In this document: positions 3,231-46,305 of the stretch, piece by piece
Position numbering within the stretch: the stretch's first letter is position 1
Layout of the letters: every line of letters starts with the position of its first letter
Origin: Catajapyx aquilonaris
Taxonomy: Eukaryota
Assembly: GCA_000934665.2 (NCBI GenBank)
Contig: KZ538162.1
Span: 62,001 to 109,952, forward strand
Direction: 5' to 3'
Length of the DNA stretch: 47,952 nucleotides
Notes under the pieces: generated by a model
The model's database searches: none
Told to the model about the DNA's origin: nothing
Seen by the model: the letters and a program-made list of their open reading frames with translations, nothing else
Position numbers and translations under genes: made by a program

Positions 3231-3243
3231 AAGGAGGAGGGAA
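3231..3243 (-). other. Candidate 13-nt microexon
   Basis: Minus strand reads cttaac-ttttttgccctcttc-tag|TTCCCTCCTCCTT|gtaagt: branch-point-like motif, pyrimidine tract, TAG acceptor and consensus GTAAGT donor. No transcript evidence. Confidence 0.25.
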
Positions 3244-3886: not shown

Positions 3887-6800
3887 TAGATGTCGTGGAT
3901 GCAAGGGGTGGACTTCGGAAAAGTCTTTGAGATGTATGACTCTGTACAGGAGTAGCCAGAGACGAGGCTAGTCTAATAAATTGGTTGTTGAACTGGAGAG
4001 ATTACCTAAGGAGGTCAGTTATCACAAACCGTACCGAGACCTTCAGAGACCTGCAGTGAAATTTCGCACGTTTGCACATACAGACGACATTGCCTCGACT
4101 TCCGAACCATTTTACGAGCAACGGGCACGGGCCAAAAGCAAACCAATAGCAGAACTTTATATTGTGGCGGGGGGCCGTAGATTTAACCGATAAGTCTCTA
4201 ATTGCAGTCATAAACCGACTCTGGGATATCCTCTACCTATAGCGGAAGAGAGGTCGGCTGAATATCGGTCGAAACAAAGCTGCTTTGCAATCGGGGGATA
4301 ATGTAGGCGATTCACTCCAAGCTCATCGACGTGCTGGGAATAGCGTTACACAGTACCCCATCCCCAAAAATTATACATATTTTTTACCACCCCCTCCCCC
4401 CTCCCCTTTGCCGAGAGTAGAGCGATGAGAATATTGACACGCGCCCGTGGGAAAAAAATGGCAGAACTTTCAATCTGGAAATCGGTCAGATTTGCATAAT
4501 TATTACCGAGCGCACATTTTGGCAACTTTCAACTTGCTTGCATTTGCACAAAAAAAAAACCCTTCCCGTTGCAGCAGGACTGGTATATACATATTTTGAG
4601 CTCCCAAGAGAATGGACAGTAATCCAAAAGGCGGCTTCCTTCATCCATCACTGCGCCGAATTGCACTTGTATTTCTTCGTTTCCCTTGACGCGGCTCAGC
4701 ATCTCATCCTTTCCTTCCAAAAAGCCACCGGCATCGAGTTGGAGTCCAAAGAGTACTGCAGCACTGCTTCTTCCTTCCTTCTTACTTTTTTTTTTCTTCT
4801 TCCCCATCTTCCTTCTCTCTCTTGGCGGTAGTCCGACTCGTCAAGATGAGTGATTAGATTGTAAAAACCTTTGGGATTATACGCCTCCGATTGGGATTAT
4901 GCCGTCCGAGCCCCTTTCCTCCCCATCTCCTCGTGATTAAAGGTAGCCTCCTGGAGGCCCAAGGAAGAAGAGAAAAAGAGAGACAAGTCTGGTGCTGCNN
5001 NNNNNNNNNNNNAAAAAAAAGGAGATTCTCTTCTTCCTTCTTCTTTTCTTCCCAAAGAAATCGAAGTGACAGCGCCTCTTCAAGCGCTGCAAACGGGGCG
5101 TCGAGGAATCTCTTTGATACCAACCTAGTTGAATTACCCCACCGAGTGTATCCCATTAGAGTTGCAAAGCCTTAGGCCTCGTTTATGGAAGCGACCGGGC
5201 AAAAGGTGGGCGGTAGGGGGGAAAAGCAGAGGATCGATCAGGTTCAAACTCCAAAACGACAATAGAATTAATTTGCCGCTTTTGTAACAAATTAATTCCA
5301 TTCCAAACAGTTCCCTCTCTCCACCATCTCTTTCCGTATACTTTCATTACAGAAAAGCTCCCCAGATTTTGAGGGAGGTCGACGACGTCTCCAGCCACCG
5401 TCAGCAGATCCCAATCGTCGGAAGGGATGCGCCAGACCATTCAAATGAAAATCGGACACGGGATGGGGCCAAGAAGGAGAGGCATTCACGTGGAGAGAGA
5501 TACCTCCTTCTCCGGAATCCTCCCCCATTCCTCCCAGCCTCCGGGTTCCAAAACTTCATCCCCCTGCTGGCTTTCCATGTTATCTCCTCTGCAGGCAGAC
5601 GGAGAGTCCCCCGGATGCTGGGGGTAAAAAAGTTAGGGATGGAAAGATGTGTGGGGAGTAGGGGGTGGTGGTGGGGACCTCAAGAAGCTCGCCTGAATTT
5701 GCAGACCGGGGAATGAAATTAAATGGCGCCCAGGGCTGCGCATGTGTCAGCCCCTTCAAGATACTTCCCTCCAGGAGATGGATGTGAGAGACTCTATATC
5801 CTGACAATGTCCGAGGGCACCAACTGCAAGTATTACGGTGGTGTAAAACCGAATTTTTTTCGCTAAAAAAAACGGATCGTAAACTGCATTCACGTGCAGT
5901 GAAAAAATCGAATGAGCGCTCCCCGTTTTTAATTGCACCATATATCATCATTTATAGCGTAACGAAACTGCGGGTTATGAATTTAATAATTCAACCCCGA
6001 GCTGGCTCCTCTGAAACGATGCCTTTGAGAAAACGTGTCCACTTTGGTACTGAAGCAATCCTGCTTGTCAATACTAGGTTCTCACTGCCTACCAGGGGCA
6101 ACACCCTGAGAAACACTAGCCCGGACAGCTAATATAATCTTCCCTTTTATCTGGAGGAAAGGTCCAGGATCTCTGTCTTGTTGGACCCTATTTTTTTTCT
6201 TCGTCTTACCCAGAGCTTTCCAATCAGACACGACACCAGTCAAGTTCCACAAAAAATGGTCAAAAACTATCAGGTGAAACTATGAGGCGGCTCATGGTGT
6301 GAAAGCGGTGCCAAAAAAAGCGGCACATTCCTTCCTGACTGGATGTGTAGACAAAGACTGATAATGGTAATAAATGTGCCGAAATGCCTGTCAGCCCGTT
6401 ATTGCCCCGTCATACTAACAACCTTATCTCTGAAACGAGCCGACTTGCTGCTAATTAGCAAATCTTTCATGTTGGGAAGCGATGAGGAGGACCTTGCCGA
6501 AGCAATTTGGCTTAAATATACGGCAAGGCAGCTAGGGGTCGTGGCCAAAATAACGCCGTCGGGAGGACCCCTAAGTAAAGCGGGATATATCTCCATCAAG
6601 CTTGCTGGCGTCACCATTCATCAAGCAATCAGTAAGAGTGTTTCTTGTTTTCCAAGGGAGGTGCTTTTAAGCTAGTCTGGTGCTTCACAATCCCCTATTG
6701 ACTAAGAAACGAAACTTTGGCAACTGTCTCATTCAGGAAAATTAGCAAACTCCCGCTTCATTTGCAGACGGAATTTGCAAATGCTCAAAATGCCATGTCA

Positions 6801-7193: not shown

Positions 7194-9840
7194 GCTCAAC
7201 CGTCATCTTTACGGCATCTTCTCTGGAGGCTCTCAACGGAAGCATCACGGAGAAAGGTAAAAGGGTCTCTCTTCGGCCTCCCAAAGATAAGCCACACGTA
7301 AAGAAACTTCGCCTGGACTTTGGGAGACGAAACGGTCCCTAGAGGAAGCGCATCTCCGCGACCATTTGATACCCTCAGCGAGTCCAAACAACCCAAAACG
7401 ATATTGGGACCGATGGCCTTCCATTTCACCTGGCTTGTGGTAGAGGCCATTCGACCACAATCACCAAGCTGGCCCACTGCCTGACCAAAGAATTCAGACC
7501 TTTTGGCTTCTTTCCCGTTTCAAAATGGCGGGGGTGGGGATTGACACTTGTCACAACCCTTGCTGCTACTTTGCTCATTATGACTCCCCAACTTTGTACC
7601 TGGCGTGACTGGGTTACATGTTTCTTCTGGCGCATAATTTACCTGCTGTCCCAGCAGGAGAGGGAAAAGAGGGGGGGTTTTTCCCTCGTTATTCTCTTAT
7701 CCGTCCCCCAATATGTGTAATTTGAGCTCGTATTGTTCAGTGCGTTGCGCCCGGATGGCATTGATCAACGTCCATCAGTTTTTCCGGACGCCCAAGGGAC
7801 GTGGGATTTTTGGTGTGCTATTACAGGAACCAGGAAATAAAAGGTGTGTCATAGAACGCCTCTGCATACCTGTAATGCGGTACTGAACTGTTTATCCATT
7901 TTGTCATTTTTCTCCCTCTGGGAAAAATAAGCTGCCAACAGTGGTGCCTCCCAATCTACTGGTGCAAATTACAACGTCCATTCACCGTTAGTGGCAGAAT
8001 AATTCAGACATATATGCAAGAAGTTGAGAAAAATTACTAATATTCCTACATCATGTAGTCTGCTTATTAGCACTATCGAAAGGGCCGCTATTTGCACTAC
8101 CTTCCTTCGTGCAAATTATGTTTCGCATATACACTCCCATTATTCACTCTGGCTGCACTCACTTTCATGCACAAAAAACTACCACATATCCCCAGCAAAT
8201 CATTCAGCTATCCCAAACCGCCCCGAGTATTCACAAAATCAGTCAACCCACTCATGAAGCGATTCAAATGAAAATTTTCCCTGACACACGAAAGTGCATA
8301 TATAACTCAATGCTGATTCCAATAGCGAGCCAGCAGGCCAACGTTACCTTTTGGACAACACAAATGCCCAAAACTACATGTCACTATCGACCCGTTGTGC
8401 TCGTGACAGTGGTCATAACAAATTGCACCCCACATGTCAAGCAGTATTACCATTTAATTCTATGTATGAACAATATAATTTTGAACACCCACCCAATGCC
8501 AGTCACCACCATAAACAAATACTGAAAAGGTGCAAAAAATTTTTTTTACAATTTTGGCAAAAGGGGTGTCCAGATCTTCCTAGATCTCCCCCACAAAATG
8601 CAAGTCCTGCGGGCGGTCCCTAATAAAGGGGTGGGGAAAGCTGTCAGTTCCCCCTTCGTGTGGGGTCGAGCCCCCAAACCCACGGGAGACCGCCCGGGTA
8701 CAGACGTCGGTTCAAGGGAGCACGACGCGCGCCTGTCATTAAGACCTAATCCAATTACCACATCGCGTTTCGGGGAAAAGGTTGCAGGCGGAGGGGAAAA
8801 ACTGGACAAAAGCCCAACGAAATTGCGTCGGACTCGATGAACGTCAGTCGCTTGAGTTTCTTCTGCTGGACCCTAGTGCTGTAAACACACTGTTCAAGGC
8901 GAAGATGTAAGTGGAAGAATTGAATTCGGACAATTCAGCTTTGTCATGAGTTTAGCATAAGCCAGCTGGGGCACTCTTTTTTGCTTATTATGCTAACCAG
9001 CAATAGAATCGACAAAAAAAGATGGCTTACGAAAATTAAATGTCGCATATGGCGTTGACAGCGTTTTTCTAAATAAAAAAGAAGGGTCGTTTTAATACCA
9101 GAAGCCATTACAGGAATTACCCTGACTGGAAAGAGAAATTAGCGGCCATGTCTTATTGATCTGGACAGTATATCTTCTCTTGTTCCTCCTCCATGTGCTC
9201 ATCGCAGCCATTAGCGGAAAGGCCAAATATTAGGTTTTTGTGATTGCCGAGTGACTTCATAGGGGGCAAGGATGGGTCTAGATTAGTGGAGGGGAGGAAA
9301 ATTTTCTAGTGGTTGGGGGTATTTCGGCCCCGATTATGATCATCTGTGCTCCAGGGAGATGTGTGGATTTTCGTAGATTGGCATTTTTTTTATATACGTG
9401 CCTGATGGGGAAAATTCCCCCACCGATAATAGAAAATTTGGCAGATTCATTTCCCCTAGCCAATTACCGTAATGAGTCAAAATTTACTGCCGTGACCCAA
9501 TGCTGAAAGTCCAAAGATGTTGGCGGAAATGGGCTTTTTGTGACGGTTTCGATTCGATTACGTCGAGTCAATACCTTTAGGCTGTACAAAGATAGGTGCG
9601 GTAAATCTGAATTAGTGCCGTGTTTGATCGCGAGATTTGTGCATCACACTAATCAGCTCGTTCGATACATCAAACACGTAAAGTCAGTGCCGAGTTGATT
9701 AAAGCGCACACAACATAGGTATTTTTCATATACGTCGTACAGATGTCGGTGCTTAATTATAACTACGACGTCAAACGCCTGGATCTGAAGGATTCTGATT
9801 GAAATTGTCTCTCCTGGGGTTTGGTATAGCCTAAAATACG

Positions 9841-11282: not shown

Positions 11283-11312
11283 NNNNNNNNNNNNNNNNNN
11301 NNNNNNNNNNNN
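11283..11312. other. Assembly gap (largest of six: 2482-2485, 4999-5012, 11283-11312, 22126-22148, 32396-32397, 43042)
   Basis: N runs, each next to a poly-G, poly-C or poly-A homopolymer. Confidence 0.99.
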
Positions 11313-12475: not shown

Positions 12476-13702
12476 TGTAAAGCCCTCCTCTTCTTGGGCT
12501 CACAAAAGCGGAATCCCCCTGAGGACATGGTCCAGCCCCGGTATTTTTCTTGACGGCGATGAATGTCTGATTGATGACACTCCATTTGCTTTTGCAGGAA
12601 GCCCCTCGTCCTCCTACCCCACCCTCCACCCTCTTAAAAATAAAGAAAATAAAGTAAAAAAAAAACGAAGGAAACATTGGCGGTTACGAGGACTCTCCTA
12701 TTCCTTACTAGGCTTTTTCTACACTCCCCAACTCTTCTCATGTCTTGACTTATATGAGAGATGTGTCTGTGACGGCTCAGCGTTTTCCTCTGTCTCGCTC
12801 TGATAACTTCTCCTGGAGCTGCTGGAAACCCAAGGAAGCCAGCAGACAGCAAGGTCAATTTAATGCCACGACTAGATCTTCAAAATGAAATTAATGCCAA
12901 GACGCCATCCAGCTTTTTGGCTCTGAGGAACAAACGCTTGATTTTTGCTAGTGGTGCAAAATACAGAATGAAATCCAAGGTGGTCCAATCAGCTGTCATT
13001 TTTTTGCGATATGAAAATCGTAGTTCAAATATTATTCTGTCAGTGTGAGACCCATGAGGGGAGAGCCAGAGGAAATCAGGGCATGCAGGAGCGCCCAAAA
13101 TCAGCAGGAAAAGCAGACCCCTCCCACTTTTGGCACAACACTATACATTTGTTGGAGTGGCCAAGAGCAGCAGTACGGGGTGAGGGTGGGCACATTTGCA
13201 TGGTAAATGAAGCGTGTGTGACGATGAGGACGGAGGAGCGACTCCTAATAATGAAGCTGATGAGTCGATTTTACATAGAGCTCCGAGCAGGGAAATTGGG
13301 CGTAATATTTTCCACTCCAACTAGAGTTAATGGTTCTCATAAATAAAAGCTGCGTGGTGTGGTGATTCGGATCTCTGGCGACAGTGGTTTGACCCTAAAA
13401 ACAGAGGTCGACCCCGCGCGCGGTGACAAAATTTGCGGGGGTAGTTAAAGTTGTGAAAGGGGCGTTTCACGTGCCTTATCTGCGGTACCCAAATCCGAAA
13501 GACGAGCCAACTAATGTCGCGGAAAATTATCCTACCCCTTGGCTATCGCCTGAGAGTATGGACAGGTAAAAGGCAACGGTTAAAATTACACGGATCATTT
13601 GACAACTAGAATATCTTTGGGGGTCGTCACGGAGGCTAATGCCAACACTAGCCATTAATGTGAGCACTACCAGCCATAAAATGAGGAAATGACAACACTT
13701 AC

Positions 13703-13729
13703 ACCAGTTTCCCAGACCATGGATCTCAC
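13703..13729 (-). other. Candidate 27-nt recursive-splicing (ratchet) microexon
   Basis: Minus strand: poly-T run + catctcggcc + cag|GTGAGATCCATGGTCTGGGAAACTGGT|gtaagt. The exon itself begins with a 5' splice-site consensus (GTGAGA) and ends at GTAAGT. Length is a multiple of 3. Confidence 0.4.
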
Positions 13730-16271
13730 CTGGGCCGAGATGAAAAAAAAAAAAACTAAAGGCAATCAACTTGATCGAGTCCACTTTGCTTCGTAGTAAA
13801 AACTAATATGAGGATTTTCAAGTCGTAAAAACCGACCTGGCGTTCTTGCTCGATATACCGGTGCTAACTCATATAAACTGGGAGCAGTTGACATCCAGAT
13901 GCCATTAATTTTTTGTCGATGTCAAAATGCTGTACAATGAACCGATTTTGTTATTGTTGTCCTTCCAGCAGGCGCACGAGACCCTGTCAGTAGTTTTCTT
14001 CTGACACAATATTGGTTCACCACTCAGCATCGCACGGCATACTGATACACACTGTAAACAATACTACTGGCGATGGCGGGAAAAAAATCTAGTGAAAATA
14101 GGATTTCTCGCAAAAAAAAAATCCATAGTGCCAATTGTTTTGCAGTATATTAATGACATGAAATAGGGTACTAATTTGTGCCAGTATTAATGATTCGGAA
14201 GGTACTTAACTCGACATATATAGGCCCATCATAATTTGTCATGCTGCGAATGTAACGTTTACACCTCATGATTTCTTGTTACAATACAGTCGGTCAGTTT
14301 ATTTAGAAGAGTAATTTCGCATGTATAAGTACGTGTGTGTGGCTAGACTCTAATTGACTGTAGCTATTACTACAAGCTTCAATGTTGATCTGGTAATAGG
14401 CCTTGATGCAGGCTACAGTTTCATAATATCAAAAAAAAGGCACTGCGTGCTGTCTACACCATTTGCAATTAGTCCTAATAGGCACTGTTAGATGACACCT
14501 GCAAATTAGTACAGCCTACCATTAGCAAATGCTAAAATGAGTCACTTACAGTATATCAATGCATTATACATCGAGAGGAATGGCTATAGTGTGTGTGGCA
14601 CATAGGCCCTACTGTACGCACAGTACTTTTTATTTGAACTGTGCTCTTCTATAGCCCCTTTTAAAGGCAGGTGCAATATTGTGATGAGTTATGTAGACGC
14701 CCTATGCCATTCATATCCTCATATAAAACAGAACTTGATGTAAATTAGTTTAAAGACCCCCATAACGTACAAAATCCTGCCAAAATCTCCGAACAAGCCA
14801 GTGCGTCTCCCCAATCTCATTTCCATAGATGTCTGCAGACACAAAAACGGAAATATACAAGAGCGACTGTCATTTTAACAAATCAATAGTCTGACGAGAG
14901 CGAAATGGCGAGGGTGCAAAGGAATGCAAAGTCCGTGTGATTTTTTTTAAATGAAAAAGGAAGTCTGAGCTATATTACCGCCTGTAAAAAAAAAACTTGG
15001 AAATCAATATGTAAATCTCCGTGATTCCTGTTTATTAGAAACCGTAACACGTCCGTCGCATTTACTGCCATGTAGCACAAACAAGACTCCGGAATAAAAA
15101 GGGGGCGTAAAATACACTTCCAAGTGCTAGAATCGCTACGAAGATGCTTTACATCTTGACAGAAACCGAGTGATGTATAGCTTCCCATTTACATCCAAAA
15201 TTATGCGCACCTGTACGTTTTACGTTTCTAGACCTATCGCCCAATACATACAGTATATTCGTGCTCAGCTGCCCATCAAAACCGCTTACGTGAACCGCCA
15301 GCAACTTTGATGGTCTCACCCACTCAACTTAGAGGTTCACCCCAGCTGCTGCCTCCTCTTATATCCCATCGCTATTACCGTTACAATGAAGCTAGCAAAA
15401 GGGAAGGTTTAAGTATGTTGGGAGGTCAAGACGCTGAAAGTTGGCCAGAATGATCCATCATAGTGTCATCCACCTTTTTTTTCTCTATTTTCTTACACCA
15501 ATTTTTTTTTTCCCAACCTTTTCCTACCTCCTTATCGGTGTCTCCGACTTCCCTTAGACATCTTGAAATTGCACATTATTCTAATCAGAAACGACGACAT
15601 TAGGAGCCTTAATTGCTGAACGGTCAATTCCAGCGCGCACTTTCACGCGCCGGAGAAGGCGGAAATAATTTCACGGAAAACTGAGTTTTGGCCCCCCCGG
15701 TTTTTTGTAAAATAAAAAAAAACCTTACAAGCCCTAGAGGTAACTGAGGAAGGATTCTGCAGTTGGTCAACTTCGATATTCTGGAAGCGAAAAATGCCGG
15801 GTCGGATGAGCACGTAACACCGATCCTTGTCCGGCTGGAGGCAGCCAGACAGATTGCTTTTCGCGTCTCCTATTTCTGATCAAGCCTCCTAGTCAGTTTG
15901 ACACAACCGGAGGACAAGCACTCGACCAGCATTCGTTTTCAGAAGAAGAAAAAAAAAATCTCTAGTTTTTTTTCTAGTGGTGGTCAAGCCGAATATCTGA
16001 GTAGAGAGCAAGCTTCATCCCGGCAGGTAGGAGATAAAATTAACACCTCTAGCACAGCGCCACTTTATGACGCTTTATGAGCAATATTGGACATCGTTCC
16101 CGGGGGCCCTTGGCGGTTTCCAGCCTAAGAAGGGAAAATGCTGGCTTCCAAATAGCGGGAAAAGTTGTGCCGGACCCAACCTCCATGAAATAGAGAGTTT
16201 GTAATAACCGCGAGGAAGTTCTGAGAGCGTGATTTTTTTTTCTCATTTTCGGTCAACTCAAGGGCACTCAC

Positions 16272-16301
16272 TGTTTGCGACTCCAATCACGTGAGCCTTA
16301 C
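16272..16301 (-). other. Candidate 30-nt recursive-splicing (ratchet) microexon
   Basis: Minus strand: ctcaatattaat-gcttcttttttctgtctttc-cag|GTAAGGCTCACGTGATTGGAGTCGCAAACA|gtgagt. A strong acceptor directly abuts GTAAG, with a consensus downstream donor. Length is a multiple of 3, and only the phase-1 frame is open (KAHVIGVAN). Confidence 0.5.
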
Positions 16302-19300
16302 CTGGAAAGACAGAAAAAAGAAGCATTAATATTGAGCATGGTAATCGAAAGGCAACAAGACAATAAATCCTAGTGCGGCAACTTTACGAGCCACAAACTG
16401 CATGGTTACAGCCCAAATTGAATATCCGTGGTCGTATTGCGAATCTATCATTCTCAAAGCCAGAACCAATTTCAGGTTAAGACTAAAAATTACAGTTATT
16501 TTGCGAAATTGAAAATTTTTGCCATCACACGCAATGTTTCTTATTTATGGGTATACCTTGTACAGTATAATGGTTAGTGATGAAAAAAAAAATGGTCTGA
16601 AGCAAGAGGTATCCCCATTCCATCCCGCTATTGTGACGTGCATACTTCTCCCAAGCACTTTAGTTGTCGCGCATTGTTTCACAGTATCGCTCCTGCATTC
16701 AAGCCTGCGAGCGCAACACTGCTGGCCCGCCTTTGTTTGTGAATCCAGCAGCAGCATTTTCCCCGTCGAATCTAGTACCAGCACACTACACCTCTGAGGA
16801 TACTAATCCATATGGCTCCCACCACATTTTATTGGGCACGTCTCTTGCATTGTAGCTAAACATCACCTTCTGGACCTGCGCTAAAGCATGGTAAAAAAAA
16901 TGGCGGTCGGATGTAGGTCGCTGCCGGACACACACATCCCCCCAAAAAAGAGAGAACTGTAGAAACCAATTCCAGTGGTGACTCCAGGGAATCAGGGGGT
17001 GTATACGGTAAGAGCAAAGTGATGCCGGTTGGGAGAGCTTTGTCAAAATGGCGTGGCTCTTGGTTACGATTTTTCCCAAGGCTCGTCACCCCCGGAGGGA
17101 AGATGGCGGATGTCCCCGGATGGTGCAAAACCAGTGTACCTGCCCCTGCGCTCTGGTACATCCCTGGGGCTGTCAATCTAAAAGGTCAGCCTAGCATATG
17201 CGTCGGCTCACAAATGGCATGCTGGGGATGGAGGAAGGCACAGGAAATTGGCTCTTCCTTCCTCAGAGTCAAAAATAAAAGTGGAGGAATTTTCTTGCCG
17301 TTCAGGGATGAAATGAGGAACCAGACCAAATGCACTCGGGGAAACTAACTTTTATGCTCCAGATGGTCCAAGGTCCAAAAAAAAAAAAAAACAGAACTAA
17401 ATCAGTGTGGTATGGCCGGAGGTGGCACCGTGACCAGTTGGGATGCGGTTATAGTATTTTCCTCAACTTGTATCAATCACGGTTGGCCTCTCTCAAGAAT
17501 TCCTTTATTACAGTAGGTCACGACTTGGAAGCCACTCCATTTGCAGCACGACACGACCCACTTGATGACTCTCATGCATACGCAAGAAGGTTTCCATTAC
17601 GCCAAGAAGACACTGACGACCCTGGGCCATACCGTCTTGTAGTACCTCTCCAGTCCCATTAATCACTGCCTATTCCGCCGATTATTGGACACGCGAGCTT
17701 GGCGATGACCTCGGCCACGCTTCCGTCTGCCATATCTTTCAGGTCACAACCTAGCGGAAGCAGTGCCAAGCCAGGTTCATTAAGTAGTGTGGGGGCCTTA
17801 ATCCACGCAAAAATCCAGACGCGCCGCAACATATTATCACGAAAACTTGATGGCCGCGATTACCCATTCTCCGGCCGTCCTCTTTATTAATAAAGTTTCA
17901 AAGCGTCCATTGCTGTTCATAATCTCACGCTGTCGTAAACGAACAATGAATTACTTAACCACTGAGGGACACAAACCGGCCTCAATTTCATTACACTGCT
18001 TAGAAACAACCTATACCTTTCAAATCCTCGTAGTGTCCAAAGGACATTTCGATTTCCTGTCCAGTCCACTGTTTAGAGACTTTAGACCACCAAACTTTAA
18101 CAATCTGAATGTTTCCTATATAATCAACGGATTAACATTGGTTCTTGGGCCTATGGTGGGGGGATACCACGCCTTGGGAGCACTTTCTGACCCCCATGTG
18201 GAGAAGCCTGGACACCCCGTTGGGAAGCTGCTCATTTTCACCCTGCAGCCGATGTCATTACGGCCAGACTCTGTGTCAGACTGCTGGAGAAGAGTCAGAA
18301 GGGGGTCCACCAGTCCCTCTCGGCCTCCTAGGAATACAGCTGACAGCATCTCCCATCCATCTCTGCGGGGCTTTTCAGACCATATGTTAGCCCTATAGCA
18401 AAGCCACTAAGTATGCCGTGTGATTGACTCCAACTTGCGTTGCAGGGTGTCCACAACGTACGTGTTCAATCGCACGTAAATTAAATAAATCTGCTTTTTT
18501 TTCCTCTCTCTCTCTCTCTTGAAGATTATATCTAGGTGGCCCCTTTGGACGGATGGAATGTCAAACGGCACGACGGGAGAAGGTTACACCGTCTAAAAAA
18601 AATGGTAAAAATGGCCGTTGCCTGGTGGGAAGTCTGGCAAGTTGCGTGTCGCCATGATAATGGAAATTTATTTACCGGAATAAATTACCACTATCGAAAG
18701 CCAGCTCCACATGCTAGACTTTTGCTGCAATTCCTGTCGAAAATCTATCGCCCTGGCAATGCCTTAGGGGGGGGGGGGAGTTGGAACTACCGGGGGGGTC
18801 ATGAATGATGGCAGCTTCTTCCGCTTCCGCTTTGTAAACACGGGACCTTCGCCAGGACCCAGTTTGAAACTGGGTTCAACACACAAAAAAACCCTCCACA
18901 CTTCTACAGCTACATTACACACAACACTCGCAATTTTGACCACTTGTCCCCCTCCCACTGAGAGCCTGGCCTCAGCTATGCCATGGCCCCAATCCTAATC
19001 GAGCGCTGTACCATAGAATGGGTATGGTGATAGTGACTGTGATGCTGGTTTTTGGAGGGCAGAACACAGCAAACGACTCTGCAGCTTCAAGCTCTTCTCT
19101 TTGCGAATTCCATTCTCCAAGCTTGAAAATCAATACTGAGCTGCTTCACCCCCCCCCCCTCCCTACCATCTCTTGGAAATCAGCCTACAACGCCAACCAG
19201 CATAAAAGAGGTGGAGGAAAGGGTGAGGTGGAGATGGTGTGGAATCCTCTTCATTCAGAATTGCCTAGCTGCTTCATACAAAGTCGGAAAGAGAGGGAGG

Positions 19301-22125: not shown

Positions 22126-22335
22126 NNNNNNNNNNNNNNNNNNNNNNNGGGTCCAGCCTTCAGAAAACAATCGGTTTGGAGAATCCCGTCAGTTATTTGT
22201 CATCGCCTACAAGGAGCAGTGGAACGCATTAGCGGATGGTTTTATCTGGCCTGTAAATAGAAAGCAGCTCCAGGCTTTCCGGTGAACTTGTGCGCGAATG
22301 GAATACTGAACGTGGCCCGGTGGTGGGGCGTGGAA

Positions 22336-24130: not shown

Positions 24131-27100
24131 GAAGGACCCAGCTCCGGCCTGTTGATTCAGACATAACTGCCAAGTCAAAGTTCTCTACGGCTTCCGAAAC
24201 GTTTCTTGGATCACTAGACTAATATTTGCATTCTGCCAAGGACAAAGCATCGCGATAACACTTATGAAGCGAACCATCTCTAAGAGCCACTGCTGCCTGC
24301 TGAATAAAAACCAGGGAGGAGGACCTTCCAAACATTCCGGTTATAACTCTTTTCACGGCTCTTTTTAACCGGGTCCTAAAACTCCACTTGGAAGCGATAC
24401 AAGGCTCGCTTCTAGGCCATTCCCCTGCTACTGCTACTACTGCCCCTCTCCTCAACTTGGCTCCTTTTTCCGTCCTCTCTCGATATGGAGGAAAGAGCTG
24501 GTAATTAAACAGTCCAACGAACAGTGCTTCCACTTTCCAGTGGTTACTGCGTGCCGACCACAAATGATTCAGTTTGTCTGTTTCAAAAGCGCCTTCCCCG
24601 CACTGCCCCCAACCACAACCGTAGGGATGAGCATGGAGATTCGCCGAGGAAACAGAGGCTCGCTCAGACAATACGAATGGCAGTGCATCCGACTGGAACA
24701 CAGAATGCTCCCGTACCCAGCATCCCAATACACTACATTTTTCAAGGATACACTTTTTGGGGGGAGGGTTATTAACATTTTTGGAAGTGTAAGGTCGTGA
24801 AGAGAGGAAGCAGCTATAAACACGAAGGCCTCTGGGAAGTGGAAAGCACACTTGCGCCTTCTTTTTCCCCAAGAAAATTCGCTATTACTACACCGTCTGG
24901 GAAGCAAGCTTGTAGTTCAAGTGCACGAAAAAGTGCAAGTCGAGAGTCGTTACGCTGTTATTTTCCCACACAATATTGCCACCAAACACGCAGGGTCTTT
25001 ATCTCCCGAAGTTAATCCCATAATATGTTCCGTTACTTAATTTCCGTCTAAACACCCTCCGAGATATCTGCAGACTTAGGCCCGAGTTTACGGCACTTTA
25101 CAGTTTTCATGCCACGGGGTAGATACGCTTCTCGTGGGAGTAAAATACAAAGGACAATACTCGTAAAATGCGGAGTATATTACTTGTATACAGTCAGCAT
25201 GCACTGTAGTCCGTTTATCTATCCCCGAAATGCAGGTTCAACAAACCTGTACAGTAAACTTGATCATCTTGCATGTGTATGGTCAGTGTGGCCAAGTCGG
25301 AATCTTGCTCATTGCTCAGGTACAGTGTTGGACATTAATCGCGTCATACTGCTTGCGACATTTTTTTTGATGCGGCAGAAGTGCAAATCAAAGTGGTAGA
25401 GTGTGAGCCTTGCGTGTAAGAAGAGGAAGGCCTTGAGTGACGTCACCGGCTGTGGGGACAATGGAGCCAGTGACGTCCCCCAAGGGCTATCATTTCTTAC
25501 TCGCACGGCTCGCACTCTATCACTTCGATTTACACGTCTGCCGCATCGGGAAATGTCGCTAGCAGTATGATGGAATTAATGTCCAGCACTGTACTATACA
25601 CAGGACAAAATTATGTGATCGCCTGTTCCCATATTACTACAGTTCTAACATTGTTTCTTGTTGGTCGAAATAGTTGCTAGTTTTCACCCTCTAGAAAGAA
25701 AATCCTGCTTTTTTCCCCCCGTTTTTTTGTTTTGCTTTTTTTGAGGTCGTTCTTAACCTGCTCACTGGCCCAAAAAGTGCCCCCTCGCAGCCCTGAAACT
25801 GCAATCAGGCGAGACAATCGTCGATCTGCAGCTCGCCTGGGACTCCGTAAATTTCGGAGGTAAACACACTGCACCTGAGGTGGTGGCATTAAGCCGGCGC
25901 ACACAGCTACTTTTACTCCAAATGCACGGCTCAAATGCAGAGCATGTAATCAGGCGCAAAGATAAATACGAGGAATTAAATCTATATGGCGAAGGCAGCC
26001 AGAGGAGATCCGAGGGCGAAAACCCGGGGCCAAAGGGACACCACAGGGGACCACTCCGGGGAGTGTTTGTCGATCGAAGCCCCCGGAATTAGTAGGCTAG
26101 TCCGGCACATGGACCTAAATTCCAGTCTCTCTGGCACACAAGCTCACACCCTGGTTTTCCGCTCGGAAAACCCGGCGGCCAAGTGAGCGCGGCATCGCCC
26201 TAAACTTTGCATGTCATATTATAGCCCCCTCCCCCCCCCCCTGCCCACCCCCTTTTACTCTAAGGGTTCGGTCAGAGCGTTAAATCTGATTGCAAATGTC
26301 CTCCCCCGTCCGGACGCATCACATACAATCAATATGGCGAGGAATCACGTGACTCTCGATGAGTCCTTGCACGCCATGTGATATGCAACTGGGGCATAAA
26401 TGTCATGACCTGATGCCAGATTGGGCCAAGAGGTATGTGTCCAGGTTGTCCCGTTTGTTTATGACATCCAAAAAACCCATACACGGAATGTGCGTTAGAG
26501 GACAACCTTTAGGTGGCTTAGGAATTAAAAATTATGTATAGTCAAATGATGACCCATCTTCTGCAGAAATGGGTTTTTCCTCCGGACACTACAAGCTAAG
26601 AGGATAAGAGCTTCCTGGACTTAATTACCCTGACTTCTCGCGGGAGTTTTTCATTTTCTTCGGTCATGCTTCGCGTCGCTTGCTTTATTCTACACTCATA
26701 ACTCATAACAATGCAAAAAGGACCAACCGGAGGAAGGTGATTTAAAATGATAACTAGTACCAACGGAAAAGTCGGATGAGAGCCCAAAATTTGTTGGGTG
26801 TTATAATCAACTGTGGTGATTGATTTCTAGAGAAGCTCACTTGGTAGGCCATGGACCCTTCCTAGCTATAGCATCTACAATTTGCGGCTGGAATTTACGT
26901 CGTCCGAGGGGGGCGCCCCTGAAAAAAAGCCATTTCAAGTGTGCGACGCTGCCGTCACCCAAATTTGATCGAATTTGGAGTCTTTTGGCGACAAAAGGCG
27001 CTGAAGGGCACACGCCCGCTGGTGGGTCCTGATACGATTTATTCCCAAATAAAGCAGAGTGACATGTGCGTCTGACAGCCGTAAAGTCCGGTCCCAAGAA

Positions 27101-27629: not shown

Positions 27630-27687
27630 ATGTACACTCTTAACCATTTACCCTCTCTAGAGAAGGTAAATGGTTAAGAGTGTACAT
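27630..27687. repeat. 58-bp loop-less palindrome (one mismatch)
   Basis: ATGTACACTCTTAACCATTTACC-c-TCTCTAGAGA-a-GGTAAATGGTTAAGAGTGTACAT. Confidence 0.95.
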
Positions 27688-29380
27688 TTTTCTCCATGGT
27701 AAACATAAGGGGGCTTATATGAACCAAATTAGGCCCACTATAGGCTAGAATTCCAATAGTGTATATAGTCGAATGATCAGGAATGGAAAGTGGGGTGTGG
27801 GAGGGTTATTTTTTATCTCCTTCCACCTTGTCCTAGACTGGATCTGCCATCGCGAGTGACATTCGCCACTAACTCTCGCGCGGAAGAGTCGCAGCCATTT
27901 GACTCCGGGACGGTAGTGGAAGATAAGGGACTCTGCGAATAGGCCACCTACCCCCACCCCCTTCTTCTTACTTGTTCGCCTTGGCCCACCACTAAATCAA
28001 ATCCACGCTCCAATCCCCCCTTTTTCCTTACTCTTCTCCCGGAAATTGACAAGAGAAGCTTCCCCGCTCGAGGGGTCCAAACCACAAGCCTTCTTTCCAA
28101 TGGAGCACCTAATGATTCACTTTCATCCAGATCGGAACTGAAGATGAATATTGCGAATGGACTCCCCAAATGAAATTTCACCACCTATTTTTACAGGTAC
28201 GTCCCCCCCTCTTCCGACCTTAGTTCACAATGGTGCTAGCAAAATAGCAATTAGGGAGCGATACCAGCACCGGCTCATTCAAAAATAAATCGGGGGGAGT
28301 CATCCAAAAAGTTTTGCTAGGGCTTATACGTGGTGCTCAACGACTATCGTCCAATTCCCCTAGCCTGAGCCTCCTGGGCCGCATTTTCCAAAGCGCATTT
28401 GGGAACCCCAGGTTCCACCAATTTGCCCAGTTATTCTGGCGGGGAGGTTAGGCGCTTGATGAGGGACTCTACCCTTCCCTTTTGTTTAACGTGCTAACCA
28501 ATCTGGCTGCCAAGACAAATATTTTAATGAAATACGGCGCGCGGTTTTGATAATTGGGTTTCTGTATACCGGACTCCCCGGAGTACTTCATGCATGTATG
28601 CTGCTCTAGGAGCGAGGGGATATCCGGAATAAGTGGGAGCGAAAACTATGGGCCCAGGTTACCGTATAAGCAACAAGATTTGTCCTTGTAATCCCTTATA
28701 ATCACAGGCTACCTGTGAGTAGTAATCCAATCATGCCCGCAAGAAGTACATGGTGAAACACAAAGTGAATCCAATTACACCTGGGAAATTGATCCCCACC
28801 TCTGTACAAAATAATCCAAAAGTTGCTCTTTTGCGCAAGTACCCAGCACTTAATAAGGTGCACAAATATGCACAGGGAATATTTTACAAACTGAACAAAG
28901 TACTTGAAGCCTATGTTGGAATTTTCCGAGCTAGCTTGTGAATATGCACCTAATAGGCTATTAATGTAAATGTGCACTGTAACAGTGTTACGCGTGTTTG
29001 ATTACATTAGCAATCCAGATGGTTTTTCCCCCACATGGGTTGAAAAAGGTTAGTTGAAAAAAAAATATTTTGGACGCACATTCCATTTTTTATTTATTTT
29101 TTACAAATGCACTTCAGATCTAGCCAGCTTGTTATTCATATATGGACGGATAAGCATGCTACAGTTAAATGCGTCATGTTCCCAGTGATTCACAGCCCCA
29201 CTTGAAACCAACTGGTATGTGCATGAAATGTAGCATACAAATATGCTAATATTTGGCTCTAAAATAAGTAAATAACCATATATAATGCGCGGTATTATTA
29301 TGCGTGAATCATGATAACAACAACAATGGATTATAGTAAATGGAAGGACCATGAGTAAGAATATATAATTATATCCATAG

Positions 29381-29439
29381 TCCAACCAAAAAATACACAT
29401 GCCAATAATTATTATTGGCATGTGTATTTTTTGGTTGGA
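29381..29439. repeat. 59-bp perfect palindrome (29-bp arms, 1-nt centre)
   Basis: TCCAACCAAAAAATACACATGCCAATAAT-t-ATTATTGGCATGTGTATTTTTTGGTTGGA. Confidence 0.95.
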
Positions 29440-32400
29440 TTATTATGGACAATAAATGCCTGCATTAATGCTCATTACGATTGAAGCATATGTGCTACCG
29501 GTGTCACTTGAATTTTCTTGCATCCTCCCCCATATTTAATAATTCAAACGTGGCTTATCCCAAGTTGAAGCGGCTCTGCAACGTTCCTTTCCAGCCTCCC
29601 AAAACAGCCTCCCAATCAAAAACCAGTTCCGACGCCACAGGTTGCACGTCATAATAGATATAAGCCCATACAGGATAGGACTTTGAAGTTTGTATTGCAC
29701 ACGGAGGAGACCACCGCGCACAGGCTAGAATACTAAAGCAGCTTCCAATCCACTGCCAAGTCTTGTGTCTGAACCATCTATATACATACACACACCGTGA
29801 AACTAATACAAATTCAATCCCGACCTCCTCTTTTTTTTTACCTAAATGGAAAAAGCCTGTATGCGTAATAATGCACTCTGAGACGAAAAAGCAAAAGTTG
29901 AGCGCCCAAGTCATTTCACCTTGATGCAATTGTCCTGATTTGAAGGAGGCCACCGTCCCACGCGACTCGTTCTTGCTTTTCGCCAAAGCATATATACCCT
30001 CGTCTTACTAGGTTGCCTGCTTCCGCCGACAAGACGGGAGACGCACCACTTTGCATGGAAATGTTGCGAAACCAAGACTCCCAACTTTGTCATTAAAACT
30101 CCTTCCGATTCTTTCAGAAGAAGAAAAGAGGTAGGAGAAAGAAGGATGAAAGTGAGACTCTTTCCTTGAATTTAAGAGAGTCGTATACGAGTGCATTAGC
30201 ACCCTCTAGGCTGCCAAAGTCACACAAAAAAGTAGGAGTCTGATTAGCGATAGGAATGTGTGGAAGTCTTAAAAAAAATTGTGAGGCTATAGGTGGTAAA
30301 AGTCCACATGGCAACCGCCATCAGACAAGTTTACAGAACCGCTCCAACACCACCATTTCCCCTAATTAAAACAACCCTGAACCTGGCCCCAAGCCCGTGC
30401 CCAATGAAACAGAGCCTAAAGGCATCTCTGTCGATGTTTCATCCCAACACCTGGGCCTAATGAACATGGGAGGCACCATTCATCAAAAAAGCACGATATT
30501 ACTTACTTTTTCTAACCATTTTTTTGATACAAAGACGTTTGGAAAATAGTCCTCCGCCCCTCCCCCGCCAGCTACATGAAAAACGTGTCTCAGTTCCGGG
30601 GTGATTAACAGTCTAGAATCTGATGAGCTAGCCTAGGGCATATCCATTCAACCAATTTTCACTCTATCAATTACAATCAGGCTCAGAAAATTTACCGCAT
30701 TCAAAAATAGCGCCTAATCCTAATTACAAGCGTCAAGATGGAGATGCTAGCTTGTTGACCCCCAGAGGGGTAGGTGGAAGTAACAAAAAGAGATCCTCCA
30801 GCAGGGCGATAATGAGATGGCCAAAGGACCCGGCCGTACGAGACCAATTACTACATCATAAATGGCTACCTTTATCCCAACTGCCCACCTATACTCACCC
30901 TTCCCTCTCGCTGTTCATTATGCAGATGGGAAGCTCGCAGGCTTTGACTCTAGGGCGGGCTTGAGCCTACTCAAAAGCCCCGAGGTCTGTTCACCCCCTC
31001 CTACCCACCCTCTACGGTTACGCTCTGCTCAACACGTAGCTTGATCAAAAGGTTAAGCCAAAACAGGGTTCAAATCAGCAAGCAACATAATATACGCACT
31101 CCTACACAACACCTCAATATATAAGATATTTTTAGGAACCAGAAAAAGCACTAATTACATGTCCAAACCCTAGAACCCAATACTCTAATGGGCAATTCCC
31201 AACCGGAAATTTACGACTCCCAATAAGATCTTTCCCCCTCCCCCAAAAACACAAAGTGGCCCCCATGTGCCTCCGCACGCGCAAATGAAACTTCCCGCCA
31301 ACTGAGGAGTAAATATAAGCAGTTGTGTCGGCACAATGCGCTGTATTTACCCAGCGATTCATGGTTTTGTTCCCTCCAGTTCTTGGGCCATGCGTCTGCA
31401 GACTTCTCAAACACAATTTGAGAGGGGGGGAGGGGGGGGAGGAGCTCATTTATGTCCCAGGCCGACTAGTCTTCATTATGCGACCCCCCTGACTTATATG
31501 TATAGGGGGATGGGGGGTTTGAATATACTGGAGGGGTCACTCTGGACCACGTGTGGAGATGCCTTGGAGGAAAAGTTATGGGGGACCTCCCAGCAGGCCA
31601 ATTGCAAGTGGAGGAACTGGCGGAACATGGCTCCAGCTTCATTGTGCTCTTTTAACTAATGTTTCCTCATTCATTCTGGAGTTATATGGGCGCACATGTG
31701 AGATGATAGAGATATCACTCGCAACCATTTACACGTGTTCCATTCGAGGGTTTAGCAGCAGATGGTTCGTGCGACATAAATATTCAACCCCCCTCTTTTT
31801 TAAAATAAAAAAATGACAAACAAAGTGTATTTTAACCCCCCCCTCGCCTTTGTGTGCTTGAAGGACTATGGCTGTAGAGTGTAATGTTCCTGACGGCATT
31901 GCGGTTGAAACAGAAACTAAACTCTCCGCAACTAATAATTGAATATGAAATGTTATCCCATGGCTGTTGGAATTCTGGAAAATATGACCAGAATGGGGTA
32001 AAGCTGGCAGCCTTGTGGCTGCTTACTTCAGTTACACCAAAAGTCAATAAATTCACTAAACATATTTGTTTGCTCTCTGTTTAATGTATGATCCTCCTAC
32101 TCCCAGGTGCAGTATTTATCTACACTGTATGGCAGCACGGCTTTTCCGCAGTTTATTTTTAATCAGCCAGTTTCGCACTTGCGGCCTGAGGGATGAAAGG
32201 GTAATCATGACTAAGTTAAGTAATCCCTCGGTCGAGTGATGACTTTTTCATTCGGCCAGAAGGGAGGTGGCAACACCACCCTTTTTCCCTTCCCATGATA
32301 AAAAATAGTCACATATTACTACCGACAGTAGATGCAGCAGGAATTAGTACCCGGATTGGTCCCAGCATTCCTGAACAGGGGGGGGGGGGGGGGGGNNGGG

Positions 32401-38244: not shown

Positions 38245-38278
38245 GACCGGCAGGACCGTTATAACGGTCCTGCCGGTC
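38245..38278. repeat. 34-bp perfect palindrome
   Basis: GACCGGCAGGACCGTTA|TAACGGTCCTGCCGGTC, with no spacer. Confidence 0.95.
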
Positions 38279-41200: not shown

Positions 41201-44200
41201 GTTCAATTAAAGTAACCACAGGTCTGCCTGAAGTCAAGGGCTTATTTTTCACTTTGCCCGACCCGAAAATTACTGGGTTTCGAACCTCGTCTCATTCCCA
41301 CGAACAATTTAAGCAAAGCAACGCCCCATTATGCCCCGTTTAAACGGGTAAGACATGGCCAACAATTTGTTTTCGCCAATATGCACTTGAATCAACTGGG
41401 ACAATGGAATGTTGAAAAACCAGATCAGAAACTGGATACAGTTCATTAGAATGCACTGTTTCACTCTTTTTTTTATATATATACACTTTTTATTTGATTT
41501 TCCTTCGCATGCGTGAAGCACGTTCCAGTGTTTGTCGATGCAGAAGCGTCGCGTCGTGCCGCAAATGGGTGGACCTCTGCCTTGATAAAAAGCGGAAGGA
41601 ACTTCTCTATTCACGCGATGCAAAAACCGCAAGAGTATCCAATCACTGCAGACCTTTTTTGACTCATAAGAGGACACGTTCCTTTTTTTTTTTTTTTAAC
41701 TCTCCTTCCTTGATATTTCATCTACACGCTCTAAATTGGCTCACATTTACTCGCACGCTCATTATGGAAATCCTGCTGCAAGGAAGACTAGTAATTTCTG
41801 AGGACAAGAAGAGAGGGAATGCCTTCCCTTTAAAAACTTTGCCAAACCCCCACACAAGACTCGGAAAATTCTACTCACGAATCCGTCGGAGGACAAACGC
41901 GCCCTAACGAAACCTATTGTGCATTCATAGAAATAGGAACCATCCATCAAATCTGTCCGGACGCATTGAAAAATTACATATAACAAATTCATACTTTTTT
42001 GCTAAATTTATGACTTGCAGGGAAAGCGAAAAAAAGGGAGGGTGGGGGAGAGAACTGAGGCCTCCCCATTGGTGACCAGGAACAACCATCAACTTTTATG
42101 CCTGCCCATAATCTCCATTTCTGGCAGTAAACTCATCCGAAAAAGTTTGTATGCAAACGTACTCGAACGATAAGCCTCTGAGGAGGCACGTATAGCCTGC
42201 GGAAAGAGTCGTTTTCTTTGCCAAGCATGAATTCTTAATAAGCACTCCTATACCTGGGGTTCTTGAATAACACCCAACTTCTCAATCGGGGTATCTTGTA
42301 ATGCAACATTATAATCATTGACCACCACACGAAGTAATAAGCAGTGCAATGCTCCACCTCAGGCAGAAGCTCACACACTTGATTACAAGGGAGACGTGCA
42401 GATACGGTCTGCTTCATTGAATCACGAAAGGACCCCTGGGTATATTGCAGGCGCATATTAAAACCCCGGCTGAGCTACGGGAAAAAAATGGCAGGTACAC
42501 AATGCATACAAGGGGGTATTGTGATACACAATATTTCAAGTCGGGGGTGTAGGAATTTCCACCCCCGAAAATGGCGGTATATCGGCTTTAAAAGGGCGGT
42601 TAGTGTATATTCCGGACTAGGGATACCCCCTCCCGTAATTCATTGGTCGCATCACAAATTAAGGATCAAATGGGATCATTTCCCAACACTGATCACTTCG
42701 GACAATGGTGCAACCTATTTTATCGCGGCTTTAACCAGGCCATTTCCATGAAGCGACGCGACATAGGACAGCGACATGGACTCTTTTTGAGTTTTTTTTT
42801 TTTTTTTGGTGGGGGGTGGGGGGTATGTCCCCCTTACAAAATGTCAATACTTGCACTTGCATTATTTATTTGCGGGACGGTCATCAGAAGAGCTTTTGCT
42901 CCAGGATGTACCTGTGCCTCAGTTGCGGGCTTGTCCTCCAACAGAATCGACGTCCATTTTCCAGAGTGTAAACACAATTGCACAAACCAGACTGGAAATC
43001 GAAATGCCCACTCGACCCAACTTGAAGAGTATCCAACATGGNGGGGGGGGGGAGTGTAATCCAGGTCGACATAATTATCGGCAGGTAGTGATGAGTGTGT
43101 TTGACACAAAATGCATAATTAATGTACTCTAAACTTTTTTATAGGTTATAGGCTGCCAATATCCGAATCAACTGTCAGCCATTCAGTTTTGCAGTACATA
43201 CCGGTACGTTGTTTTTTTTTTAATGCCAAATGTTCGCCCTATAGCAATTTAGAAATCGTGGCTTCAAGCGTATGATTTCCATACAGTGTCGTATAACGAC
43301 GTTATGCAAAAGCTACAATCGCACTAAAAATAGGCACGAGTTTTTCAATACCAAGCAATAAATTGTGTAAACATTATCTTTGCCATCTTTTTTTTTTTTA
43401 AAAAAAAGCCTTTGAAGCAGTCGGCAGGCTATAAATCAGCTGATTACAGTCGTCTACAAATTTTCAACTTGTTCTCTGCTCCGATAATGCCGTCCAAAGC
43501 ACTCACATTAAGAGGAAAAATGAGCTCCTTCCTCCTCGAGATGTGCGGTTGAAACCATTGTCAAGTTGCGCCTAGTCAAGAAACCTTGCCAAGTTTGATT
43601 TTACAGCAATCTCGACCTCAACCACCCCAAAAAAGATAATTTCCCTCGGAAGTAAGGGGGCAAGGGCCTGCACCCGTCCCATCTGGACTATACTCCAAAA
43701 GACTGGACTCGTTTTTCAAAAGTTGTCCTGAAAACTATCCCGATATTTCAGCAAAGTGCAGATAACCATTTTTTTTTTTTTTTTGTAAAGTTTGACACAA
43801 ATTATGACAAAGGGGCTGTCTAACGATGCTCATTTCTGGCATATTCTTTCGGTTAATTGCAAGTGTCAGCCGGGCTGTGTTACTACAGGTTATAAAATAA
43901 TGCTATCAACTCCTAAGCACCATTATAGCTACTAGTGATTACAAAAATAACCTGCAGATATATCCATTTTCCCTAGTGACCGTTGCTAATAAGCCTACCA
44001 AATTCCACGATACCATAAAAACTACCTTTATCACCTACCGCCTTCACACACTATTACCCCCACAACTTTTTTTTCAAAGTTTCAACTATTATTCCCCAGT
44101 GTCACGCAATGCACCCGGGTGGTCCGGTTGACCTTCCGTCCCCCCCCCCCCCAAATAAAAAAAACAAACAAACAAACAGGACAGTTCCCTACCTGCAGAA

Positions 44201-45022
44201 GTGAAGATAACAGCAGCCAGACCCAACACCACAATCCACTGCAACTTGGACATCATCAGGTCAGCAAAAAGGTCGGTCTTGTCGAAAATCTAAATATCGC
44301 CACAAGTGTCACTTGGCGCCACTTGAGAATCCAAACAAGCACGACAAAATTTGAGAATTGGAGGGTGGTTAACCCGACAGGTGGGTAAAAGGTGCGAAGA
44401 TTTTTCTATTTCCCGCGTCGCCGAGTCAACTGGATACGAGAGAGAATAAGGGAGCTCTATACTGGGTCTGAAGCCCGATGAACTCTGCGGGCTTTTCGGG
44501 TTTGGTGTGCGCGGTGCACGCCGTTTCTCCCTTGCCTGGGCCCGCCTTTACACATACTCCGGGGCCGCTGGTTCATCGGTGACGCTGCTGTGACGTTGCG
44601 CCTGTTTTCGGCAATCAAAAGCGGCTTGGGGATTGGGCCATAAGGACGGTACCGTGGAGTTGCCAGTCTTTTCCACCCACACTGATCGATGGGATTGGTG
44701 GCCACCACTTCGGTCATTATGTTAGAGGAAAGTGGGATTTCGAACGGTTATGTAGAACAGTGGGGTTTGACCGAGTGTGCGGTGGGTAGAGTCACGTGGA
44801 TGCTCATTTGATAATAAGATAATGGAATTTAGATATGAAAGTGATGATGAGCAATCATATATTATGATACAGGGTGTTGCCTGTAATTTGGGACAGACTT
44901 CTAGGGAAGCGGTTCCCAACCTGGGGGTCTCGACCCCCAAAGGGGTTGCGAAGCCTTTTCCGGGGGGTCGCGCGTGGCCGCGGTAATTTTTGTAAATTAA
45001 AAAAATTACTAAATTTTTTATA

Positions 45023-46227: not shown

Positions 46228-46305
46228 CCATCCTATGATTTCGTCTCTGCAAGGATTATTAGTGTTGGCACCAAACAAAATCCTTGCTGAGATGAAATCA
46301 GATGG
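46228..46305 (+). other. 78-nt imperfect hairpin (pre-miRNA-sized, or a tiny palindromic repeat)
   Basis: Arm TGATTTCGTCTCTGCAAGGATT (46236-46257) pairs with AATCCTTGCTGAGATGAAATCA (46279-46300), with one G-U and one U-U. Basal CCATC/GATGG extension and a 21-nt loop. Confidence 0.6.

Follow-up and report, generated by a model that had tools for sequence, protein, structure and literature searches.

Recursive splicing and the closest described systems

According to two accounts (PMC8605326, PMC6224609), experimental evidence for recursive splicing (RS) comes almost only from Drosophila and vertebrates, and Ubx is given there as the only case in which RS has been validated for expressed RS-exons. 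A ratchet point with an RS-exon is defined as a tandem acceptor and donor together with a short exon, of ~50 nt, that is defined by a downstream donor (PMC8605326). Here we describe two sites of this kind, A and B, on the minus strand of a 47,952-nt stretch of contig KZ538162.1 (positions 62,001 to 109,952). This whole stretch is called the window, its positions are counted from its first letter, and a slash within a sequence marks a splice junction. The A/B pair is a well-formed sequence candidate rather than a demonstrated case.

The microexons m1 and m2 of Drosophila Ubx (PMC8605326, describing Hatton et al. 1998) are two short microexons in one long intron, each with a length divisible by 3 and a start that regenerates a donor on ligation. 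Sites A and B share the short, frame-keeping lengths and the donor-like start, and would share the regenerated donor and a long intron, as proposed below. Whether m1 and m2 are included or skipped is described as depending on which donor is used, the regenerated or the downstream one, and by analogy the same may apply to A and B. The Ubx microexons differ in that they are 51 nt each, belong to a Hox gene with proven re-splicing and lie in an intron of ~73 kb, whereas A and B are 30 and 27 nt and are known from sequence alone. In addition, A and B follow a signal-peptide-like exon, and no homeobox was found in the window by the Pfam scan of open reading frames (ORFs).

Drosophila also has ratchet points within introns that carry cryptic RS-exons (Burnette 2005, Duff 2015, Joseph 2018; PMC8605326, 10.1101/006163). 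These have a long pyrimidine tract, CAG/GTRAG and, within 100 nt downstream, a further donor; they lie in long introns, and their ratchet donor is predicted to exceed the exon donor in strength. A and B share the tract, the CAG/GTRAG and the nearby second donor, and would share the order of donor strengths and, with a proposed intron of at least 30.5 kb, the long intron. The cryptic fly RS-exons are described as ~50 nt long, generally out of frame and never present in mRNA, whereas A and B are shorter and in frame. Reported fly RS introns span 11.3-132.7 kb and are removed in segments of 2,596-63,580 bp with a median of 16,368 bp (10.1101/006163). The segment between A and B (2.6 kb) is within this range, at its bottom. 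Ultraconservation of the junction is described as a hallmark of fly ratchet points.

Sequence anatomy of sites A and B

On the minus strand, site A reads cttcttttttctgtctttcCAG/GTAAGG (AG at 16303-16302), followed by a 30-nt exon (16301-16272) and the donor GTGAGT (16271-16266). Site B reads T13-catctcggccCAG/GTGAGA (AG at 13731-13730), followed by a 27-nt exon (13729-13703) and the donor GTAAGT (13702-13697). The two sites are 2,572 nt apart on the same strand, both lengths are multiples of 3, and phase 1 is open in both. An initial annotation of this DNA had described this architecture at 16301 and 13729 (a tract and CAG/GTAAGG or GTGAGA, then GTRAGT 30 or 27 nt on) and had joined the two exons in phase 1; both statements were confirmed by reading the sequence directly. 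The phase 1 translations are KAHVIGVAN for exon A and EIHGLGNW for exon B, and the bridging codon (A+GT) encodes Ser.

Acceptors and donors were scored with a rough matrix. The 3' splice region of microexon A (16302-16329, minus) has a TTAAT that resembles a branch point, with its A at 16326 (24 nt from the AG), and then a pyrimidine tract of 19/20 and CAG. Its acceptor score of 12.8 is the highest on either strand, and no other AG lies within 66 nt upstream. Microexon A (16272-16301) is the top-scoring candidate exon of the window and encodes (x)KAHVIGVAN in phase 1, its sole open frame; its GTAAGG start is a putative donor that would be regenerated once the exon is ligated. The downstream donor of A, ACA/GTGAGT (16266-16271), has a consensus intronic half, a poor exonic half and a rough score of 2.7. 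The 3' splice region of microexon B (13730-13768, minus) consists of a branch-point-like TTGAT (A at 13766), which may act as the branch point, the T13 run and catctcggccCAG, with a 17/20 tract and an acceptor score of 8.1. Microexon B (13703-13729) starts with GTGAGA and is open in phase 1, where it encodes (S)EIHGLGNW, and also in phase 0. Its downstream donor, GGT/GTAAGT (13697-13702), has a poor exonic half (GGT) and a rough score of 1.7.

No repeat within the window overlaps either site. A possible origin of A and B by exon duplication was rejected, as their alignment was weak (2/10 columns invariant) and gave no evidence of duplicates.

When the two sites were compared with the published descriptions of RS-exons, a juxtaposed acceptor and donor (pyrimidine tract, CAG/GTRAG) was found at both, and a second donor less than 100 nt downstream was found at +30 in A (GTGAGT) and at +27 in B (GTAAGT). 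The out-of-frame or stop-containing content of the cryptic fly type was absent, as the exons of 30 and 27 nt are both open in phase 1. Frame-preserving, donor-starting microexons in tandem, as in Ubx, are present at the sequence level, and they would lie in a single intron. All sequence-level features of an RS-exon thus appear to be present in A and B and, because both are in frame, the pair's nearest resemblance is to Drosophila Ubx m1/m2. The proposal of recursive splicing in the initial annotation is partly supported, in that the architecture agrees with the way in which a ratchet point with a short RS-exon has been defined; the rest of it stays a sequence-level candidate.

A GT start alone is no proof of recursion because donor regeneration is also found in ~3.4 % of ordinary human exons (4,631 RS junctions vs 130,410 non-RS junctions, or 4,631/135,041), and a similar share is reported for sea urchin (PMC6224609).

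Occurrence of the composite pattern in the window and in simulations

A composite pattern, AGGTRAG followed by GTRAGT within 6-80 nt, was searched on both strands of the window. Only two matches were obtained, and these were sites A and B. GTRAGT occurs six times on the plus strand and 15 times on the minus strand. With a total of only 21 GTRAGT in the 95.9 kb of both strands, the top two ratchet-like junctions nevertheless each have one within 30 nt. When all 331 AG/GT junctions (152 on the plus and 179 on the minus strand) were ranked by the sum of acceptor and donor scores, A and B were first and second (15.7 and 10.4), and the next junctions scored 8.5 and 8.2.

In Markov simulations, the composite pattern with at least 15/20 upstream pyrimidines was present in 4 of 400 windows (order 1) and 3 of 400 windows (order 3). 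The expectation is therefore ~0.01 composite sites per window vs two observed, with tracts of 19/20 and 17/20. The reversed decoy gave no match, and the complement-only decoy gave one match with a 12/20 tract. Chance is an unlikely origin of the A/B architecture.

AGGTRAG itself was found six times on the minus strand and never on the plus strand, and the two decoys, reversed and complement-only, contain it 9-10 times; this strong donor motif is thus apparently depleted on the plus strand.

Plain acceptor-donor pairs are a different matter: simulations gave 1.2-2.0 per strand by chance, in line with an earlier caution that such pairs occur by chance in this DNA. Of the two examples offered for it, the plus-strand pair at 8877-8906 was confirmed (14/20 tract); at 39640 on the minus strand the GTGAGT donor was seen, and no acceptor passed the tract filters. 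Four plain exon-like units were counted on the minus strand vs none on the plus strand, which is not significant as 38 and 62 of 400 simulations reached four.

A putative first exon and a possible long-intron gene

The initial annotation had suggested a long-intron gene on the minus strand, and two observations upstream of A lend this suggestion some weight. The first is a candidate first coding exon (44193-44256, minus; exon 1 hereafter), 27.9 kb from exon A. It starts with ATGATG, encodes MMSKLQWIVVLGLAAVIFTSA and ends ...GCAG in phase 1, which is the phase that A and B need. The peptide MMSKLQWIVVLGLAAVIFTSA is signal-peptide-like: its start is basic, its core hydrophobic and its end made up of small residues. 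The donor of this exon, CAG/GTAGGG (44187-44192), has a rough score of 5.4, which is equalled or exceeded by 10 of the 2,791 minus-strand GT sites, and TATTTA is located ~35 nt upstream of the ATG. When a stringent filter for a signal peptide followed by a donor was applied, 44256-44193 was the sole match on either strand, and 1 of 150 simulated windows had a match; this significance is overstated because the filter was written after the candidate had been seen.

The second observation is the minus-strand G>C skew, which is 0.073 (z 8.3) over 16302-44192 and -0.022 upstream of exon 1 (44257-47952). It is 0.055 between A and B and 0.031 below B. The change in skew coincides with the putative gene start, and the skew is strongest between exon 1 and A. 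G>C skew is known as a mark of transcription from work in mammals, and here it may mark a minus-strand transcription unit that starts at exon 1. A gene for a secreted protein, of no recognised family, probably starts in the region 44187-44300 (minus).

Predicted competition between donors

If exon 1 ends with CAG, as proposed, its ligation to A would produce CAG/GTAAGG, which scores 7.7 on the rough matrix vs 2.7 for the downstream ACA/GTGAGT. Ligation to B would produce CAG/GTGAGA, with a score of 7.0 vs 1.7 for the downstream GGT/GTAAGT. With these scores, both regenerated donors would rank in the top four of the 2,791 minus-strand GT sites. The A/B junction itself, ACA/GTGAGA, scores only 1.1 on the same matrix; B would therefore tend to stay in when A is included.

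At RS sites of flies and mammals, skipping through re-splicing is reported to be favoured where the ratchet donor exceeds the donor of the RS-exon in strength, and inclusion to follow where the ratchet donor is weakened (PMC8605326; PMC6224609); for Bx and kuz, a sharp rise in inclusion is described when the GT at the exon start is changed (PMC8605326). The sequence thus predicts that an intron of at least 30.5 kb would be removed stepwise, in segments of 27.9 kb and 2.6 kb with more to follow.

Searches for homologues and coding content

The Pfam scan took in all stop-to-stop ORFs of at least 60 aa in the window. None of the 315 ORFs scored above the cutoff. Two sub-threshold matches were observed, Toxin_11 (17.2 bits; cutoff 25) and PH_20 (17.6 bits; cutoff 27), and the Toxin_11 ORF (285-524, minus) was rejected as it has no convincing cysteine framework. 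Because no Pfam-recognisable coding exon was found among these ORFs, the gene can be inferred from short pieces only. Scans for Rfam families and tRNAs found none in the window.

Exons A and B in their ORF context (alignment A2) were compared with longer proteins, and none of 23 candidates reached E<=10. The search of exon B's ORF against proteins of near length gave no candidate. The search of representatives with the A2 alignment gave one match (P0001), which was rejected as repetitive and aligned only to the intron-derived columns 3-31. A degenerate pattern of the exon A peptide was also scanned against metagenomes. Of the 12 loci obtained, two are high-GC and the other 10 make up a single low-GC repeat family; AG/GT flanks were seen at none of them, and all 12 were considered unrelated. 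No orthologous locus came out of these searches.

Comparison with vertebrate RS-exons and schistosome micro-exon genes

Vertebrate RS-exons have been described as cryptic (Sibley 2015) and as annotated exons repressed by the exon junction complex (EJC) (Blazquez 2018, PMC6224609). By analogy, A and B would share with them exon definition as a first step, a donor regenerated at the exon-exon junction, and an outcome that depends on donor strength and repression. The annotated vertebrate RS-exons described there differ in being usually normal-sized and constitutive. Vertebrate genomes also differ from this DNA in composition, as the window has an observed/expected (o/e) CpG ratio of 0.75, unlike vertebrate DNA. 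The cryptic RS-exons of vertebrates sit in introns of more than 100 kb.

The micro-exon genes (MEGs) of schistosomes (10.1101/2023.06.21.545858) are described as having a secreted product, very short symmetric exons and long introns, in all of which the proposed gene would be similar. They differ in that they contain runs of many microexons with introns of up to ~5 kb, whereas here two microexons would follow an intron of 27.9 kb. Of the MEG-like combination of a signal-peptide exon and a run of symmetric microexons, the window contains the signal-peptide-like exon and only two symmetric microexons above chance. A GT start is not known to be a feature of MEG exons.

Other exon-like units and features of the window

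Two further minus-strand units would continue the frame from B. The first is a possible 13-nt exon (3231-3243), ctag/TTCCCTCCTCCTT/gtaagt, which would take phase 1 to phase 2. The second is a possible 82-nt exon (534-615), ttcag/G ATG GAA...TGT/gtgagt, whose sole open frame fits entry in phase 2; when this exon was searched in its ORF context, three candidates were obtained and none reached E<=10. Neither unit is above chance, and as their fit is a ~15% coincidence, 3243-3231 and 615-534 are considered leads only.

Other candidates were rejected. The strong minus-strand donors at 37032 and 27622 lack a usable upstream acceptor, and the latter abuts a palindrome. The unit at 40450-40406 has a strong acceptor, but its donor is weak and its frame incompatible.

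The GC content of the window is 41-50% in 2-kb bins and, together with the CpG o/e of 0.75, the window looks like invertebrate non-coding DNA. On the plus strand, a 179-aa open frame (46670-47206) contains tandem acidic repeats of ~10 residues (TSDETVLQPT) and has no Pfam match; the DNA copies of the repeat at 46900-46957 and 46960-47017 are 88% identical. This frame may belong, as an exon, to a neighbouring gene on the plus strand.

Self-complementary palindromes, 34 to 281 nt long and with 79-100% self-matching, are present at four places, 25320-25594, 27630-27687, 29377-29443 and 38245-38278, and look like hairpin or miniature inverted-repeat transposable element (MITE)-like elements. Inverted arms of 111 nt (45019-45129 and 45246-45356), 92% identical and 116 nt apart, and a second inverted pair (45764-45831 and 46013-46083) are foldback or terminal-inverted-repeat-like structures. 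Six short N runs (2482-2485, 4999-5012, 11283-11312, 22126-22148, 32396-32397 and 43042), with a total of 74 bases, represent gaps or masked sequence; none of them touches the A/B finding.

Discussion

The motifs, their uniqueness in the window and the reading frames were observed directly. Their interpretation as an RS system is plausible, though unproven, and is somewhat strengthened by the context of the two sites. We tentatively favour a reading, itself well short of certain, in which A and B are microexon units of one minus-strand gene that the spliceosome recognises, with functional regenerated donors, and form an RS-exon pair of the Ubx m1/m2 type.

The mechanism that we propose involves the identity of exon 1, the order of the splicing events, the outcome of donor competition and expression itself, all of which we infer. 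Transcription would start near 44.3 kb, and exon 1 (44256-44193) would encode a signal peptide and end with CAG in phase 1. Exon definition would come first, each microexon being marked by its strong pyrimidine tract and CAG together with the consensus GTRAGT donor 27-30 nt downstream. Exon 1 would then be joined to A, 27.9 kb downstream, and CAG/GTAAGG would be recreated. This donor would compete with ACA/GTGAGT and, by the rough score, beat it, so that most transcripts would re-splice at the junction and lose A. At B, 2.6 kb further on, the same choice would be made between CAG/GTGAGA and GGT/GTAAGT. The intron of at least 30.5 kb would in this way be removed in steps. Wherever the downstream donor wins, an in-frame insertion of 10 or 9 residues would be placed just after the cleavage site of the signal peptide.

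Several points weigh against the RS-exon pair. Some of them concern the gene itself: none of the 315/315 ORFs of at least 60 aa is a Pfam-recognisable coding exon, neither peptide was found in any protein of the searched collections, and the sites and the gene are known here only as sequence. The way in which the evidence was gathered also counts, as the pattern was picked post hoc and by eye out of many windows, the filter for a signal peptide was drawn up once the candidate at 44256-44193 had been seen, and the phase match of exon 1 to A is a 1-in-3 coincidence only. Compared with known systems, 2.6 kb is at the extreme low end of RS segments, and cryptic fly RS-exons are described as generally out of frame (PMC8605326), whereas A and B are in frame. 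In deuterostomes, the donor-regenerating exons described are mostly just included, the EJC silencing that donor (PMC6224609).

This last point leads to the alternative that survives best, namely that A and B are ordinary coding microexons, constitutive or cassette. Their GT starts would derive from the codons xGT-AAG (Gly-Lys after exon 1) and AGT-GAG (Ser-Glu), and the donors that ligation regenerates would stay silent, for example because the EJC masks them. Two lengths that are multiples of 3 and one shared open phase are typical of cassette exons and atypical of cryptic RS-exons as described in PMC8605326, and the poor exonic halves of both downstream donors (ACA and GGT) fit coding constraint. 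The ~3.4% of human exons that regenerate a donor are yet reported to be mostly constitutively included, with a similar picture in sea urchin (PMC6224609). At that same frequency, however, two neighbouring exons that both start with GTRAG would be a ~1-in-1,000 coincidence (our arithmetic from the counts in PMC6224609). The failure to find either peptide in any protein also speaks against ordinary coding microexons, as does the rank of both regenerated donors among the four strongest minus-strand GT sites. We regard this alternative as a serious rival, somewhat less probable than the RS-exon pair.

A second alternative treats A and B as pseudo-exons in non-coding DNA, splice-like motifs that arose by chance or have decayed and that the spliceosome ignores. 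It would account for a window in which no recognisable gene, RNA family or tRNA was found and in which plain acceptor-donor pairs are common by chance. From the simulations, a Poisson estimate for two composite matches is ~5e-5 per window; a large scan would give some such cases, and this one was picked by eye from very many windows. Against this stand the two composite sites seen where ~0.01 are expected, their shared strand, 2.6 kb spacing, lengths in multiples of 3 and common open phase, the best acceptor on either strand at site A, and the presence of a compatible signal-peptide-like exon and a strand skew. On the basis of the simulations, the shared strand, the 2,572-nt spacing, the multiples of 3 and the common phase, and even when the post hoc choice is allowed for, pure chance is given a low probability, and pseudo-exons as a whole are judged improbable to a like degree.

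The weakest alternative is that larger upstream exons end here in paired alternative 5' splice sites, with spacings of 30 and 27 nt. It would fit the frame-keeping spacings and a frame that stays open upstream of both sites (81 nt before 16301 and 72 nt before 13729), but is very improbable given that the immediate upstream sequence (a 19/20 pyrimidine tract in A, a T13 run in B, each ending with CAG) has the anatomy of an acceptor rather than of coding sequence and that no acceptor further upstream passed the filters.

The RS-exon pair may also be read more broadly, as a Ubx-like re-splicing switch outside arthropods and vertebrates. Tandem RS-microexons would then follow a signal-peptide exon, an intron of at least 30 kb would be removed in ratchet steps, and a secreted protein that belongs to no known family would gain, through donor competition, 0, 9, 10 or 19 in-frame residues at its mature N-terminus. 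We consider this wider claim doubtful at present.

If verified, the two sites, 2.6 kb apart, would provide a compact natural substrate for the study of donor competition. An in-frame pair of RS-microexons in another invertebrate lineage would also mean that the Ubx type of ratchet-donor use, in which the choice of isoform is combined with the removal of a long intron, is more widespread.

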